A DNA stretch of 6,504 nucleotides from a virus (lineage: Duplodnaviria > Heunggongvirae > Uroviricota > Caudoviricetes). The translations under genes were made by a program, and so were the position numbers. How positions within the stretch are numbered: position 1 is the stretch's first letter; every line of letters begins with the position of its first letter. Where the stretch lies: the IMG/VR virus record IMGVR_UViG_2529293063_000012, positions 1-6,504 of that record. One strand, 5' to 3'. Of the stretch, positions 1-6,504 are shown one piece after another. The notes beneath the pieces were generated by a model that was given only the letters and a program-made list of their open reading frames with translations, was not told the origin of the DNA and made no database searches.

Positions 1-1
1 C

Positions 2-1090
2 GGTGATGATAGTCCTGAAGCTCGGCGTATCACCCGCCGATGGGGTATAACTGAAGTAGCAGATTTAATTGGTGTAACTCCTCAAGCAATTAGAGATGCT
101 GAAAAGAGCGGGCGTTTACCTGCACCTGACTTTGAAATGAGAGGAAGAATTGAACGTCGTGCTGGTTATACCATAGATCAAATCAACAGTATGCGAGCAG
201 TTTTTGGCAACCCAAACCAACGACCACAAGATAAAAACCCTGTTGTGCTTGCCGTTATGTCACACAAAGGCGGCGTTTATAAAACATCGTCTGCGGTGCA
301 TCAAGCTCAATGGTTAGCATTACAAGGTCATCGTGTTCTTTTGGTTGAAGGTAACGATCCTCAAGGCACGGCCTCTATGTATCACGGTTATGTTCCTGAT
401 TTACATATCCATGCCGAGGATACTTTACTGCCATTTTACTTAGGAGAACGCGATAACGCTGAATATGCTATAAAGCCAACATGTTGGCCTGGGCTAGACA
501 TTATCCCTAGCTGCCTAGCTTTACATCGTATAGAAACAGATCTCATGCAATATCATGCTCAGGGTAAATTGCCTCATCCTCCACACCTTATGCTACGCGC
601 AGCTATTGAATCAGTTTGGGATAACTACGATGTTATCGTTATAGATAGTGCTCCGAACCTCGGTACAGGAACCATTAACGTTGTTTGTGCCGCTGACGTT
701 ATTGTTGTTGCTACACCTGCAGAATTATTTGATTACGCTTCTGTTCTGCAGTTTTTCACAATGCTTCTCGATCTATTGGAAAGCGTTGACCTAGGTGGAT
801 TTGAGCCAACCGTTCGCTTACTTCTGACTAAATATAGTCTCACTACAGGGAATCAATCACGATGGATGGAAGAACAAATAAGAAATACATGGGGATCAAT
901 GGTATTACGTCAGGTTGTACGCGTTACCGATGAAGTAGGTAAAGGCCAGATAAAAATGAGAACAGTATTTGAACAAGCAGCAAACCAACGTTCAACATTG
1001 AATGCATGGAGAAATGCTGTTTCTATATGGGACCCTGTTTGCCGAGAAATTTTTGATGATCTAATAAAACCTCGCTGGGAGAACGAATAA
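2..1090 (+). CDS. sopA: Partition ATPase SopA/ParA (type Ia Walker-type), 5'-partial: reading frame is open from position 2 with no stop, so the true start lies upstream of the window
   Basis: Translation from position 2 gives GDDSPEARRITRRWGITEVADLIGVTPQAIRDAEKSGRLPAPDFEMRGRIERRAGYTIDQ..., which continues into the ORF-track protein. It contains the deviant Walker A box (SHKGGVYKTS) and long stretches that match F-plasmid SopA as I recall it (e.g. VLLVEGNDPQGTASMYHG, KPTCWPGLDIIPSCLALHRIE, DVIVIDSAPNLG). The Met at 137 in the ORF track is internal. Confidence 0.9.
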   Translation, partial: GDDSPEARRITRRWGITEVADLIGVTPQAIRDAEKSGRLPAPDFEMRGRIERRAGYTIDQINSMRAVFGNPNQRPQDKNPVVLAVMSHKGGVYKTSSAVHQAQWLALQGHRVLLVEGNDPQGTASMYHGYVPDLHIHAEDTLLPFYLGERDNAEYAIKPTCWPGLDIIPSCLALHRIETDLMQYHAQGKLPHPPHLMLRAAIESVWDNYDVIVIDSAPNLGTGTINVVCAADVIVVATPAELFDYASVLQFFTMLLDLLESVDLGGFEPTVRLLLTKYSLTTGNQSRWMEEQIRNTWGSMVLRQVVRVTDEVGKGQIKMRTVFEQAANQRSTLNAWRNAVSIWDPVCREIFDDLIKPRWENE

Positions 1091-2055
1091 TGAAACAGCG
1101 CTCTCTTCTGAAAAATGCTCCAGATATTAATCGCATTATGAGTAATAATCATCATGCCCCTGAACATCAGCCCGTATCACCTATGGTTGGTGATTTAAAA
1201 CGTCAACTGAGCTCATTAACCGGTAACAGCATAACTTTGCCAGTATGCGGACGTAATGTTAACTTTAAGTTAGAGACAATTCCCGCAGATAAAGTTGAAA
1301 TGGCAACAATGGTATGGCTAGGTAATGAACGCGATCAAGATTTATTAAATGAATCCTCTCTAGCCGATTTAATCCCATCTTTTCTAACGTCTGGACAACA
1401 AAATCCAGCTTTCGCCAGAAAAGTATCTGGAATCGTTGAAGTCGCTGACGGCTCACGTAGAAGAAAAGCAGCGATATTAACAGGATGTGACTATCGCGTC
1501 TTAATTGGTGATCTCGACGATGAACAGATGCATTGGTTATCCCAAATTGGTAACGATTATAGGCCTATTAGTGCATACGAAAGAGGAAAGAGATACTTAC
1601 GCAAGCTAAATGACTTTGATGGTAACGTTAAAGCATTAGCCGAGGCTGAAAATATAGATAGAAATATTATCACTCGCTGTATCAATACAGCTGGTCTACC
1701 AAAAGATATATTAGCTATCTTCAATCATCCAGGAGAACTGTCAGCTCGTGCTGGAGATTCTTTGTTTAAGGTTTACAAAAAAAACATGGCTGCCATGAGC
1801 AATGCTGCTCATCATCTTCTGGCAATTAAAAAAAACGGCGAGGATTTAGAATCTTCACGGATTATACAAATATTATCTGACTCTGTTCTGGTTGGCGACG
1901 AGGAAAAAACAAAAGACGAGAAAAAATATGGGGAAGGGATCACTGCTAGATATAAAGGTAATTTTGTAACTATAAAAATTGATAGCCGCAAAATATCTAA
2001 AGAAATACTAAGCAGAATTGAGTTGTTACTAGAGGAACAATCTACTGATACTTAA
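1090..2055 (+). CDS. sopB: Partition centromere-binding protein SopB/ParB
   Basis: 321-aa ORF whose ATG overlaps the sopA stop by 1 nt (TAATG at 1088..1092), with GGAG about 9 nt upstream. Motifs match F SopB as I recall it (ITLPVCGR, WLGNERDQDLL, DLIPSFLTSGQQNPAF, VSGIVEVADGSRRRKAA, LSQIGNDYRPISAYERG, IITRCINTAGLPK, FNHPGELSARAGD). Confidence 0.9.
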   Translation: MKQRSLLKNAPDINRIMSNNHHAPEHQPVSPMVGDLKRQLSSLTGNSITLPVCGRNVNFKLETIPADKVEMATMVWLGNERDQDLLNESSLADLIPSFLTSGQQNPAFARKVSGIVEVADGSRRRKAAILTGCDYRVLIGDLDDEQMHWLSQIGNDYRPISAYERGKRYLRKLNDFDGNVKALAEAENIDRNIITRCINTAGLPKDILAIFNHPGELSARAGDSLFKVYKKNMAAMSNAAHHLLAIKKNGEDLESSRIIQILSDSVLVGDEEKTKDEKKYGEGITARYKGNFVTIKIDSRKISKEILSRIELLLEEQSTDT

Positions 2056-2059
2056 GAAG

Positions 2060-2082
2060 TATCCCCTGCATTGCAGGGGATA
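2060..2082. terminator. Perfect palindrome (11-bp arms, 1-nt centre) between convergent sopB and invertase genes; probable bidirectional intrinsic terminator, alternatively a protein-binding site
   Basis: TATCCCCTGCA-T-TGCAGGGGATA read directly at 2060..2082. It lies 5 nt after the sopB stop and about 22 nt from the invertase stop, with a T-rich stretch (TATTGATTTA) following on the + strand. Confidence 0.4.
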
Positions 2083-2104
2083 TTGATTTATGGTTGTACT
2101 CCAG

Positions 2105-2659
2105 TCAATGATTCCCAGCCGGAAACCTGCGGTAAAGCGTGGATAAAGCAACATCGAAGATAATCGCTATCTGTTTACGTGAAACACCATTCACAATAAG
2201 CCTTCCGACCTGTTCCCATTGCTCGGGTGCCAGTTTTGAGCGGCGCCCCCCTATCCTACCGTTAGCCCTTGCCACCGCTAATCCTGCACGCGTTCTTTCA
2301 ATAATATTTTCCCGCTCCATCTCTGCGACCGCACTCAGCATTGTGTAGGCAAAGCGGCCAATTGATGTGCTAATTTTTATTCCTTCTGTAACAGAAATAA
2401 ATTCAATGTTGTTTGATAAAAAATAGTTAAGCAATTCAACAAGATGAATCAGAGAACGCCCCATTCTGTCCAGCTTCCAGACAATAACCGTATCACCCGG
2501 TCGTAACGCTTTTATCAGCTTATCCAGTCCTGGTCGTTTTGACTTCGCGCCAGATATTTTATCTTCAAAAATCCGGTCACATCCTGAACTCCTGAGCGCT
2601 TCCAGTTGTAACTCCAAATTCTGGTCAAAAGTTGACACTCTCGCATAGCCGTATTGCAT
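2105..2659 (-). CDS. Serine-recombinase DNA invertase of the Gin/Cin/Hin/Pin family
   Basis: 184 aa with N-terminal catalytic motif YARVSTFDQ (Ser9), resolvase-domain motifs VWKLDRMGRS and AEMERENIIERT, and a C-terminal HTH (RKQIAIIFDVALSTLYRRFP) closely resembling Gin/Hin. Size and position next to a crossover site fit the family. Confidence 0.9.
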   Translation of the reverse strand: MQYGYARVSTFDQNLELQLEALRSSGCDRIFEDKISGAKSKRPGLDKLIKALRPGDTVIVWKLDRMGRSLIHLVELLNYFLSNNIEFISVTEGIKISTSIGRFAYTMLSAVAEMERENIIERTRAGLAVARANGRIGGRRSKLAPEQWEQVGRLIVNGVSRKQIAIIFDVALSTLYRRFPAGNH

Positions 2660-2723: not shown

Positions 2724-2749
2724 TTCTCAAAAACCTCGGTTTGCAGGAA
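2724..2749. repeat. cix/gix-like 26-bp inversion crossover site, left (cixL)
   Basis: TTCTCAAAAACCTCGGTTTGCAGGAA. Its reverse complement matches the site at 5974..5999 at 22 of 26 positions and resembles the Mu gix sequence as I recall it (TTCCTGTAAACCGAGGTTTTGGATAA). It lies between the invertase gene and the Sv cassette. Confidence 0.75.
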
Positions 2750-3898
2750 ACGGTAAATAAGGCTTCTGGCGCATTACAGAAAAACCAGAACGGCGCAGAT
2801 ATTCCCGATAAAAAACTATTCCTGCGTAATATCGGCACAACAAATTCAACAACCATGTCTTTTAGTGGTGGTGCTGGATGGTTCAAACTGGCAACTGTAA
2901 CAATGCCACAAGCCAGTTCCGTGGTTTACATAAGCCTGATTGGTGGCGCAGGGTATAACGTTGGCTCCTCGCATCAAGCAGGCATCTCTGAGCTGGTTCT
3001 GCGTGCCGGAAATGGGAATCCAAAAGGTATTACTGGTGCATTATGGCGACGGACCTCGGTTGGATTTACTCATTTTGCATGGGTGAATACATCCGGTGAT
3101 ACCTATGACATTTATGTAGAAATAGGTAATTACGCCACAGGTGTTAATATTCAGTGGGATTATACCAGTAACGCCAGCGTAACGATTCATACATCACCAA
3201 CTTATACAGCGAATAAACCAACAGGCCTGACAGATGGAACTGTATATGTAATTTACAGTTCGCACATTAAACCGACTGCTGCTGAGGTTGGGGCGTTGTC
3301 ATTATCTGGCGGTCAATTGAATGGTGCACTGGGCATCGGAACATCCAGTGTTCTTGGCGGTAACTCGATTGTTTTGGGGGATAATGATACTGGTTTCAAA
3401 CAGAACGGCGATGGCCTTCTTGATGTTTATGCTAATAGTCAGCATGTATTCCGTTTCCAGAATGGCGTGGCTATTGCTTTAAAAAACATTCAGGCCGGAG
3501 ATGGTAAAAAACTCTCGCTATCAAGCTCCAACAACTCCACAAAGAATGCAAGGTTTAATTTATGGGGTAATTCATCCCGCCCCGTAGTTGCAGAACTTGG
3601 TGATGATTCAGGTTGGCATTTTTATAGTCAAAGAAATACAGATAATTCAGTATTGTTCTCCGTTAACGGTCAGATAAACCCCAACAACTGGAGTAACTTT
3701 GATTCTCGTTATGTGAGAGATGTCCGACTTGGTACACGTGTTGTTCAGACTATGCAAAAAGGCGTGATGTATGAGAAATCAGGTCATGCAATTACGGGGC
3801 TTGGCATTATTGGCGCTGTTGATGGCGATGATCCGGCTGTATTCAGACCAATACAAAAATACATCAATGGCACATGGTATAACGTCGCACAGGTATAA
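2741..3898 (+). CDS. Tail-fibre variable C-terminal cassette Sv; silent in this orientation (no ATG; the TTG at 2741 in the ORF track is probably not a real start)
   Basis: The frame is open back to a TAA at 2666..2668 with no ATG between 2669 and 2740. The N-terminus encodes GLQETVNKA, the same junction peptide as in the expressed fibre (GLQETVNRA). The protein is Gly/Ser/Thr/Asn-rich and its C-terminus (NFDSRYVRDVRLG..., PIQKYINGTWYNV) parallels the Sv' C-terminus. Confidence 0.8.
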   Translation: MQETVNKASGALQKNQNGADIPDKKLFLRNIGTTNSTTMSFSGGAGWFKLATVTMPQASSVVYISLIGGAGYNVGSSHQAGISELVLRAGNGNPKGITGALWRRTSVGFTHFAWVNTSGDTYDIYVEIGNYATGVNIQWDYTSNASVTIHTSPTYTANKPTGLTDGTVYVIYSSHIKPTAAEVGALSLSGGQLNGALGIGTSSVLGGNSIVLGDNDTGFKQNGDGLLDVYANSQHVFRFQNGVAIALKNIQAGDGKKLSLSSSNNSTKNARFNLWGNSSRPVVAELGDDSGWHFYSQRNTDNSVLFSVNGQINPNNWSNFDSRYVRDVRLGTRVVQTMQKGVMYEKSGHAITGLGIIGAVDGDDPAVFRPIQKYINGTWYNVAQV

Positions 3899-3901
3899 TT
3901 T

Positions 3902-4045
3902 ATGCAGCATTTAAAAAATATTACTGCAGGTAATCCCAAAACTATCGAACAGTATCAACTTACAAAAGAATTTGATGTTATCTGGTTATGGTCCGAAGAC
4001 GGAAAAAACTGGTATGAGGAAGTGAAAAACTTTCAGCCAGACACA
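3902..4045 (+). repeat. Internal inverted repeat, arm 1 (5' end of U), ~88% nt identity to the reverse complement of 4848..4991
   Basis: Manual alignment of 3902..4045 against the reverse complement of 4848..4991 gives a 22-nt and a 48-nt perfect block (AATCCCAAAACTATCGAACAGTATCAACTTACAAAAGAATTTGATGTT) plus scattered mismatches. Identity starts exactly at the ATG. Confidence 0.8.
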
Positions 4046-4429
4046 ATAAAGATTGTTTACGATGCAAATAATATTATTGTCGCCATCACCAAAGATGCCT
4101 CCACGCTTAACCCTGAAGGTTATAGCGTCGTTGAGGTTCCAGATATTACAGCCAACCGCCGCGCTGATGATTCCGGTAAGTGGATGTTTAGGGACGGAGC
4201 TGTGGTTAAACGGATTTATACGGCAGACGAGCAACAACAACAGGCCGAATCACAAAAGGCCGCGTTGCTTTCTGAAGCTGAAAGCGTTATTCAGCCACTG
4301 GAACGCGCTGTCAGGCTGAATATGGCGACGGATGAGGAGCGTACACGACTGGAGTCATGGGAACGCTACAGCGTTCTGGTCAACCGTGTGGATACAGCAA
4401 AGCCCGAATGGCCACAAAAGCCTGAATAA
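3902..4429 (+). CDS. Tail-fibre assembly chaperone (U/Tfa family) cognate to Sv
   Basis: 175 aa starting 4 nt after the Sv stop (TAATTTATG). The N-terminal ~45 aa are nearly identical to the minus-strand paralogue ([26 protein letters not shown].WLWSE.GKNWYEE). Position directly downstream of a fibre tip is typical for Mu U and P2 G. Confidence 0.85.
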
Positions 4430-4434
4430 AAATT

Positions 4435-4454
4435 AAGGCCCGCTATCGGGCCTT
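4435..4454. terminator. Bidirectional rho-independent terminator hairpin between convergent U and U'
   Basis: AAGGCCCG-CTAT-CGGGCCTT, a GC-rich 8-bp stem with a 4-nt loop, sits in the 28-bp gap between the U stop (4427..4429) and the U' stop (4458..4460). Confidence 0.6.
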
Positions 4455-4457
4455 GTC

Positions 4458-4991
4458 TCATTCAGGTTGTTCGGGAAATATTACTGGCAGGCTGGAGGTG
4501 TCTGTAGATTCGACTTTCTGCGCATAGAGCATCCACTCGGTTAATTTTTGTTTATTCTCGTCGGAAATGATGCCCAGCCGTAGCTGTGAGTCCCATAGCT
4601 GTGTTTTATCCCTGACGAGCTGTAGCAGGCTTTGCTTTTCATTTTCCGCTTGTTGCCTCTGCTCTTCCTCGGTATAAGTTCGCTTTATCACTACGCCATC
4701 TTTGAACATCCAGTTGCCGGAAATATCAGCGCGTCGGTTTGCCGTAATATTGGGTAACTCAACCACACTCATTCCCTCTGGATTAATCAGGGATACATCT
4801 TTCTCAATACAGCAAATAACACCCTCCTGGTTATATGCCACTTTTAACGTGTCAGGCTGGAAATTTTTCTGTTCCTCATACCAGTTCTTACCTTCTTCCG
4901 ACCATAACCAGACAACATCAAATTCTTTTGTAAGTTGATACTGTTCGATAGTTTTGGGATTTCCTGCTTTAATATTTTTTAAATGCTGCAT
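4458..4991 (-). CDS. Tail-fibre assembly chaperone (U'/Tfa family) cognate to Sv'; start placed at the ATG at 4991 (the ORF track extends to a GTG at 5000)
   Basis: The protein from MQHLKNIKAGNPK... parallels U. The ATG at 4991..4989 follows the Sv' stop (4995..4993) in a TAATATG arrangement, with AGGA about 10 nt upstream. The C-terminal half diverges from U. Confidence 0.85.
   Translation of the reverse strand: MQHLKNIKAGNPKTIEQYQLTKEFDVVWLWSEEGKNWYEEQKNFQPDTLKVAYNQEGVICCIEKDVSLINPEGMSVVELPNITANRRADISGNWMFKDGVVIKRTYTEEEQRQQAENEKQSLLQLVRDKTQLWDSQLRLGIISDENKQKLTEWMLYAQKVESTDTSSLPVIFPEQPE
4848..4991 (-). repeat. Internal inverted repeat, arm 2 (5' end of U')
   Basis: Reverse complement aligns to 3902..4045 at ~88% identity (see arm 1). 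Confidence 0.8.
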
Positions 4992-4992
4992 A

Positions 4993-6504
4993 TTAAGCAC
5001 GTCCTACATTGTACCAATGACCATTAATATATTTCTGAACAGGAGCGTAGACAGGCCATTCTCTCGAATCATCAAAGTTGCCACCTGTCAGAACGTATCC
5101 GGCTGGAACCGTTCCGCCATCACCACCCCAGACAATCCCACTCTGGTTAGCACCCATGCGAACGTCACGAACATAGCGTGAGTCAAAATTACCATAATTG
5201 CCGGGAATAATTTGCGAGCCGCAAAGCCAATTCCCGTTATTATCCATGTACGCCTGACCATCGGTGCCATTGTCTGTCCTTGAGTTATTAATCATGTAGA
5301 TGCCAAATTCCCTATTCCCCAGTCCACCAATCATAAATTTGCGGTCAGCATGGTCCTGACGTAGCAATGCCTGGGCGCTATCAGTTTTAACTATATTTCT
5401 CCCAAAGATAGCGTTGTTATCGCGCATCTGAATCCACATACCATTACTGCTGTTAATAGCAAAACGGTTTGCAAATATATCCCCTGTAACATCAAGACCA
5501 TGCCCCATGCTTATCCGACCAGTTCTAAGATTAAGCGTAAAGGGGCGTAGTGGCCCTATATCACCATTTTCTCCCTCATTCTCTCGTGTAGGGATGATAT
5601 GCAGGCATTCTTCAGAACGACGAAAAATAGCACCAAAAGATGAATTAAATATCCTCAGTGCATTGACTGTCGATATTTTTACTTCACTGCTGAAAAGGGC
5701 TTTAACAAGGACAGACAAAGCATCCCATTTAAGATTCATCAGGTCTTTTGTTGTGGTGCTCTGGCGGCTTCTCCATTTGAAATATTCATTGCCGTTGTCG
5801 CCTGTTTCAAACCACATGTATGAATCAGTGTCACCATCAGCATCATTTTTAAATCCAATCTTCGCCCAGTCAGTATTTCGAATCCAGGCAAGGATAGAGT
5901 CGTTTTCAAAAGTAAGCCCACCGGACAAGGTATCGCCATTCTTTTGCACGGCGTTCCTGGCCCTGTTTACCGTTTCCTGTAAACCGAGGTATTCGATAAC
6001 GGCAGCAACGGTCGATTTCGCAAGAATATCCCGCCCGACTTTTGTCAGGGTTGCCAGGCTGGCGACATCATTCCCCGTAAAATACGGAAACCTGTCTGCC
6101 GCAGTAGCAAGCCCGGCCAGCGCCGTCAGGGTGGCATCTTTCGGTTGCTTACCCGCAAGCGCGTTAGTCATGGTGGTCGCAAAATTCGGGTCGTTGCCCA
6201 GCGCCGCCGCTAACTCGTTCAGCGTATTCAGTGCGTCAGGCGACGAGTCTACAAGGGCGGCAATCGCGGCCATCACATAAGCCGTACTTGCGATCTGAGT
6301 ATTATTAGTACCTTTTGGCGCAGTTGGCGTTGTTGGCGTTCCGGTCAGTGCAGGACTATTTAAGGGCGCTTTCTTGTTCGTTTCATCCATTACCGCCTTA
6401 ACCGCTTTTGGTGTCGCAGCCAGCGTTTCAGACGGGCTGTTAGTGGCGCTACTGAGCTGAACTATCCCTTTTCGTGCCGTCGTTGCGTCCTGAGCGGTAT
6501 ATTT
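4993..6504 (-). CDS. Tail fibre protein: constant N-terminal part (Sc, entering from the right window edge, 5'-partial) fused in frame to the variable tip Sv' (about 5973..4993); this is the expressed fibre in this orientation
   Basis: The minus-strand frame is open from 6504 through the ATG at 6390 with no stop (upstream peptide KYTAQDATTARKGIVQLSSATNSPSETLAATPKAVKAV-MDETNKK...). This region and PDALNTLNELAAALGNDP are typical of the conserved tail-fibre domain in Mu S / P2 H-like fibres. The crossover site lies inside the coding sequence at the GLQETVN junction. The C-terminus (NFDSRYVRDVRMG..., PVQKYINGHWYNV) parallels Sv. Confidence 0.85.
   Translation of the reverse strand, partial: KYTAQDATTARKGIVQLSSATNSPSETLAATPKAVKAVMDETNKKAPLNSPALTGTPTTPTAPKGTNNTQIASTAYVMAAIAALVDSSPDALNTLNELAAALGNDPNFATTMTNALAGKQPKDATLTALAGLATAADRFPYFTGNDVASLATLTKVGRDILAKSTVAAVIEYLGLQETVNRARNAVQKNGDTLSGGLTFENDSILAWIRNTDWAKIGFKNDADGDTDSYMWFETGDNGNEYFKWRSRQSTTTKDLMNLKWDALSVLVKALFSSEVKISTVNALRIFNSSFGAIFRRSEECLHIIPTRENEGENGDIGPLRPFTLNLRTGRISMGHGLDVTGDIFANRFAINSSNGMWIQMRDNNAIFGRNIVKTDSAQALLRQDHADRKFMIGGLGNREFGIYMINNSRTDNGTDGQAYMDNNGNWLCGSQIIPGNYGNFDSRYVRDVRMGANQSGIVWGGDGGTVPAGYVLTGGNFDDSREWPVYAPVQKYINGHWYNVGRA
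5974..5999. repeat. cix/gix-like 26-bp inversion crossover site, right (cixR), embedded in the tail-fibre coding sequence
   Basis: TTCCTGTAAACCGAGGTATTCGATAA matches the reverse complement of 2724..2749 at 22 of 26 positions, with homology extending about 8 nt further into the segment (TTTACCGT). It is very close to the Mu gix sequence as I recall it. Confidence 0.75.

Follow-up and report, generated by a model that had tools for sequence, protein, structure and literature searches.

The sopAB operon studied here raises the question of where its centromere lies. We analysed a 6,504-bp stretch of viral DNA (hereafter the window), identical in sequence to the entire contig APZB01000145.1 (L014) of the E. 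coli draft assembly GCA_000358735.1. The initial annotation had reported a gap of 49 bp between sopB and a convergent invertase gene, a single 23-bp palindrome in this gap and no sopC-type array adjoining sopB. It had therefore placed the centromere elsewhere: dispersed as in N15, upstream of sopA, or in the palindrome itself. The gap proved to be exactly as described and the palindrome is present at 2060-2082; of the three options, the first held up and the other two did not. The genes concerned are the following.

1..1090, plus strand: sopA, a type Ia ParA-family partition ATPase (Pfam AAA_31 and CbiA)
1090..2055, plus strand: sopB, a ParB-type centromere-binding protein of 321 aa (Pfam SoPB_HTH, E = 7e-25)
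2056..2104, no strand: gap between sopB and the convergent invertase gene, exactly 49 bp
2105..2659, minus strand: serine DNA invertase of the Cin/Gin/Hin type, 184 aa (Pfam Resolvase and HTH_7)

The sopA gene is truncated by the contig start, with 362 of 388 codons left, the first being about codon 27 (SopA of relatives is annotated as 388 aa). The sopB stop is a TAA at 2053-2055 and that of the invertase, at 2105-2107, reads TCA on the plus strand; matching records annotate the latter gene as hin or recombinase. Across positions 1-2100, the window shares 99% identity with sop modules from many Escherichia "non-mobilizable plasmids" of 46-50 kb, and the nucleotide identity of sopA to numerous N15-like plasmids is about 99%. 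The SopB protein has 73% identity with its N15 counterpart and 50% with that of F.

Tandem Repeats Finder detected no sopC-like array in the window, where its sole row was a 9-nt unit repeated 2.9 times at 6315-6340. In a positive control, the same program recovered the F sopC array (43 bp x 10.7) directly after F sopB. The 43-bp array directly downstream of sopB that characterizes an F-type SopABC system is thus missing from the window, as first noted, and neither F-type nor N15-type SopB sites occur in the window at up to three mismatches. Since the window begins within sopA, the upstream region could be examined in related contigs only. That a tandem sopC-like array sits just upstream of sopA might be entertained because the window opens inside the gene and its own upstream region is unseen, but we consider this exceedingly unlikely. 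In L008, a contig encoding exactly the window's SopB, telN and sopA are separated by 649 bp that include the telRL palindrome, the promoter region and short repeats of TTGTGTTCT. This interval contains no tandem array (the one Tandem Repeats Finder row is 7 nt x 2.7) and neither an IR nor a sopC-like site. The array upstream of sopA that the initial annotation had named as a refuting condition is accordingly absent from this contig. Moreover, six contigs with the same SopB (L009, L011-L013, L016 and L017) start at the centre of telRL, about 467 bp upstream of sopA, which leaves no room for an upstream array between the gene and the hairpin telomere.

These contig ends also bear on the nature of the replicon. 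Next to sopAB, L008 encodes a TelK-family protelomerase and has repA, with the telRL palindrome CCCATTATACGCGCGTATAATGGG at 8366-8389. The six contigs break in the middle of telRL, between TATACGCG and CGTATA, and contig starts at this point are the assembly signature of hairpin telomeres. A protelomerase gene and telRL are therefore found next to sopAB in contigs with an identical SopB, as features that lie outside the window itself. To the right of telRL, the TTGTGTTCT repeats mirror AGAACACAA repeats on its left; both sets are probably the binding repeats (tos) of the protelomerase. The database entries for two relatives, PhiR46_1 and a plasmid of E. fergusonii, describe linear molecules in which sopAB is terminal.

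The best complete match to the window is NZ_CP148365.1 (L001), with 98.2% identity over positions 1-2732. Its SopB and that of the window share 320 of 321 residues, and the HTH is wholly identical. L001 encodes a protelomerase, a CyRepA1-type RepA of 1331 aa, cB/cro/Q-like regulators and a lambda-like set of head and tail proteins; this gene content is the N15 genome plan. The window falls into a group of linear, N15-like phage-plasmids that is common in Escherichia, and the ends of its draft contig are best read as consequences of the telomere and of an invertible segment described below. The suggestion that the DNA derives from a prophage replicating as a plasmid is well supported, as the replicons whose SopB is identical or almost identical are phage-plasmids of this kind. 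A missing sopC array beside sopAB can be taken as a reliable hint of such an N15-like lifestyle.

N15 has been cited as an example of a replicon with dispersed centromere sites (PMC3235114). Its four sites, IR1-IR4, all contain GTGCGACCNNGGTCGCAC (PMC7205306, Table 4) and have the 18-bp form GTGCGACC-NN-GGTCGCAC (PMC7205306). Our search of the N15 genome recovered four IR sites (one imperfect, within repA). In L001, four copies of GTGCGACCNNGGTCGCAC were found against 0.19 expected at up to three mismatches; they lie inside repA, after Q, before a methylase gene and after a DUF4406 gene, and all four are syntenic with IR1-IR4 of N15. Between four and seven IR sites were present in each of N15 and the related replicons L003, L005, L006 and L007, in no case near sopAB. 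At up to one mismatch, pAH01-1, PhiR46_1 and the E. fergusonii plasmid have five each and the Klebsiella phage Kpn_R1 seven; a sixth site appears in pAH01-1 at up to two mismatches. The negative control was the phage-plasmid of ATCC 25922 (L004), an unrelated phage-plasmid of the myovirus type that shares only the invertase/tail-fibre module, and it yielded no IR sites.

In the relatives, the sites occur within repA, behind Q, ahead of the methylase gene and close to the lysis genes or cos, and the linear map places them 25-38 kb away from sopAB; in PhiR46_1, for example, they span 7.9-18.0 kb and sopAB lies at 43.7-45.8 kb. Some IR sites are paired, 50-220 bp apart, at 32480-32717 in L003, 17793-18030 in L005, and 34787-34959 and 38189-38253 in L007. 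These pairs, and totals of up to seven sites compared with the four well-separated ones of N15, indicate that the number of centromere sites varies within the group. Taken together, the relatives strongly support a dispersed centromere of the N15 type as the predicted arrangement in the window's replicon, and we infer from them that this replicon carries IR sites of its own. Every related complete replicon, L001 with its almost identical SopB among them, has 4-7 of these sites. For annotation, the centromere would be expected as GTGCGACCNNGGTCGCAC sites in the arm running from repA to cos.

Can the window's SopB be expected to recognize these sites? Site specificity is set by 22 residues of SopB (N15 residues 179-200; PMC2910045), and N15 SopB has been reported to show relaxed specificity towards F sopC (PMC7205306). 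The 22 residues are identical among the window, L001 and pAH01-1; between the window and N15, 18 of the 22 are identical and four differ. The recognition helix reads IDRNIITRCIN in the window and IDRNIVNRCMN in N15, and around the key Arg (D-R-N) the window's protein resembles that of N15. The recognition region GNVKALAEAENIDRNIITRCIN, encoded at 1621-1686 (SopB residues 178-199), looks composite, with an N15-like DRN and an F-like IITRCIN. As four of the 22 residues depart from N15, an identical IR specificity is predicted only from co-occurrence with N15-type IRs. SopB would thus be expected to bind the dispersed IR sites.

The palindrome after sopB remains to be explained. It consists of two 11-nt arms around one central base, TATCCCCTGCA-T-TGCAGGGGATA, and is the longest in the window; when the entire 6.5-kb window was simulated 300 times under a first-order Markov model, only two simulations reached an arm of 11 nt anywhere. 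Intrinsic terminators stand at the end of operons and have a GC-rich hairpin with a loop of 3-8 nt followed by a U-rich tract. The following element has this terminator-like anatomy.

2058..2094, plus strand: probable rho-independent sopAB terminator, a hairpin that includes the palindrome at 2060-2082, then a T-rich tail, ATTGATTTATGG

A terminator scan matched 2058-2084 on the plus strand, with 12 pairs (six of them GC), a 3-nt loop and a tail with at least five T in eight positions. The RNA has a folding energy of -19.9 kcal/mol; its z-score is -4.6 for the plus strand, compared with -2.9 for the minus strand. An Rfam scan of the window gave no matches. The N15 GenBank record labels that phage's own post-sopB hairpin a putative rho-independent terminator.

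The palindrome is single-copy in all carriers, 23 sequences besides the window's, and always starts 4 nt after the sopB stop; the carriers include three complete replicons, ten contigs with the exact SopB (L014 included) and eight IMG/VR contigs. No second copy was found in related replicons, either at up to five mismatches or as exact half-sites, and the scan of IMG/VR returned its eight contigs with one copy each, always after a 99%-identical sopB and in no second context. The proposed search for further copies across replicons thus recovered solely the one behind sopB. N15 and PhiR46_1 lack the palindrome and have another GC-rich hairpin with a T-run at the same position (GCCCCAC..GTGGGGC followed by TTTTCGCTTTTT in N15, and GACCCCATC..GATGGGGTC followed by TTAATTTTATT in PhiR46_1); the E. 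fergusonii plasmid has a variant with a changed loop base and a cleaner T-run. Structure and position are therefore kept and sequence is not, which fits a terminator and not a cognate protein-binding site. The post-sopB palindrome is most likely the intrinsic terminator of sopAB, termination being predicted from these features, and the hairpin may also stop the convergent invertase transcript on the minus strand. Termination is possibly inefficient, since the T-tract ATTGATTTATGG is interrupted. We propose that 2058-2094 be labelled the sopAB terminator.

An alternative casts the palindrome as the centromere to which SopB binds, or as an additional centromere or regulatory element, directly behind sopB like the sopC of F. 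It draws on the perfect 11-nt arms at the very position where F has sopC, and on the conservation of 21-23 of the palindrome's 23 positions in all close relatives of the sop module, with which it moves. This conservation does not exceed that of the flanking 99%-identical DNA, however, and the palindrome is single-copy and bears no resemblance to the SopB sites of N15 (the IR) or F. It is also missing from N15, PhiR46_1 and Kpn_R1 despite their similar SopB HTH and their same IR sites, and replicons with an identical HTH already possess 4-6 canonical IR sites. We therefore regard a centromeric role as very improbable, and this option of the initial annotation as unsupported. There is a slight chance, a shade better, that the hairpin has a second role in addition to termination, either as a weak or auxiliary binding site (for SopB or another protein) that would mark where SopB spreading or silencing ends, or as a preferred breakpoint at which N15-like phage-plasmids exchange the neighbouring tail-fibre modules.

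The second of these roles touches on the mosaic structure of the region, in which the gap holds a further feature.

2088..2096, minus strand: remnant of a tail-fibre assembly gene, its 3' end (..Q-P-stop), recognized by alignment with L003, L006 and L004

The sequence TTATGGTTG at 2088-2096 is the 3' end of the convergent tail-fibre assembly gene that follows sopB in L003 and L006. Sequences related through the sop module align with the window up to and including 2096, and those related through the invertase module align from 2098 onwards; BLAST breakpoints fall at 2096-2100 and 2098, placing the mosaic joint at about 2097. The hairpin is thus part of the sop module, with the join to the invertase cassette about 15 bp further on. 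From 2098, the window matches at about 90% the invertase module of the ATCC 25922 plasmid and of Yersinia phage vB_YpM_44, which represent an unrelated family of myovirus-type phage-plasmids.

Three different downstream modules (the invertase cassette, a tail-fibre assembly gene and, in PhiR46_1, other genes) have been joined within about 15 bp downstream of the palindrome. This could be read as a sign that the palindrome is mainly a recombination hotspot, a module-boundary element or an invertase site rather than a terminator. Such a reading strikes us as highly improbable, because the actual joint at about 2097 lies within the assembly gene remnant, outside the palindrome, and because the invertase recombines unrelated repeats. 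In mosaic phages, module joints are commonly found at gene ends, and joints there need no special site. The preferred interpretation of 2058-2094 as a terminator is the one retained below.

The remainder of the window is occupied by an invertible tail-fibre module.

2724..2763, no strand: left crossover site (cix/gix-like), a 40-nt inverted repeat (I2) 85% complementary to 5960-5999
5960..5999, no strand: right crossover site, the inverted repeat partner of 2724-2763
2741..3898, plus strand: silent alternative tail-fibre C-terminal segment, an ORF that together with the next one matches the S-U regions of P1, Mu and D108
3902..4429, plus strand: assembly chaperone of the silent segment, an ORF with a Caudo_TAP match
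4458..5000, minus strand: assembly chaperone of the expressed tail fibre (Caudo_TAP)
4993 (stop) to 6504, off the contig end, minus strand: expressed tail-fibre gene (Phage_fiber_2 and Gp34_trimer)

Crossover sites of the cix/gix/hix class are imperfect palindromes of about 26 bp related to TTATCCAAAACCTCGGTTTACAGGAA, and stand as an inverted pair on either side of the segment. The palindrome at 2060-2082 was considered as such a site and rejected: it is single-copy, and the true pair, unrelated to it, is 2724-2763 with 5960-5999. A 3.26-kb segment (window 2733-5999) is inverted between L011 (3276-6539) and L012 (3267-6530), which come from the sister read sets SRR33799529 and SRR33799527 and are otherwise 99.9% identical. 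These opposite orientations indicate that the invertase switch is active in this group of phage-plasmids. A second GC-rich palindrome, AAGGCCCG-CTAT-CGGGCCTT, occupies 4435-4454, in the interval where the two tail-fibre assembly genes converge; read on the minus strand it resembles a terminator, and it is conserved in L001.

The explanation that we favour, with considerable confidence, is that the window represents one piece of a linear, N15-like plasmid-prophage from E. coli with a dispersed IR centromere, and that the palindrome after sopB is the predicted sopAB terminator. SopA and SopB would then carry out partition as they do in N15. Dimers of SopB would bind several 18-bp inverted repeats, GTGCGACC-NN-GGTCGCAC, on the other arm of the replicon, and SopA would then segregate the SopB-IR complexes. 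The palindrome at 2060-2082 would have no part in the centromere and would act as an intrinsic terminator of the sopAB transcript, possibly also of the convergent one. This amounts to known biology, as N15-like phage-plasmids and dispersed centromeres were described in 1999-2001 and the sop module is common to hundreds of PLSDB and RefSeq records, and its significance reaches little beyond annotation. The Sop system of N15, with sopA, sopB and the dispersed sites IR1-IR4, was reportedly described by Ravin and Lane in 1999 and by Grigoriev and Lobocka in 2001.

How does this locus compare with the systems that it resembles? The invertase module, with its two inverted crossover sites and alternative S-U segments, is like the Cin/Gin/Hin/Pin switches of P1, Mu, D108 and e14, and its tail-fibre segments have 85-91% nucleotide identity to P1/D108/Mu-like regions. 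It differs from these switches in its setting, being here a flanking module, with no role in partition, in an N15-like phage-plasmid of the siphovirus type. F is likened to the window by its homologous SopA and SopB, the latter at the 50% identity given above, and is set apart by the tandem array of 43-bp repeats (x 10.7) after its sopB, since the window has neither an array nor an F-type site. The F SopB site belongs to the same class as that of N15, being an inverted repeat of 16-18 bp that differs from the N15 type by one base per half-site (PMC2910045).

The comparison with N15 is the closest. Differences are confined in our list to four of the 22 specificity residues in the SopB HTH, the sequence of the terminator hairpin, the number of IRs (4-7 in the relatives and exactly four in N15) and the neighbour of sopB, an invertase gene in the window and the umuD-like gene 26 in N15. 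Against these stand the gene order, with sopA-sopB some 460 bp from telRL and in convergent orientation to the end of the tail gene cluster; the lack of an adjacent repeat array and the putative hairpin terminator after sopB; and, in the relatives, an identical IR core, GTGCGACCNNGGTCGCAC, at syntenic positions. The window's own proteins have the type Ia ParA SopA and the SopB HTH domain of that system. By the criteria that sequence can address, the locus is most probably a member of the N15 Sop system.
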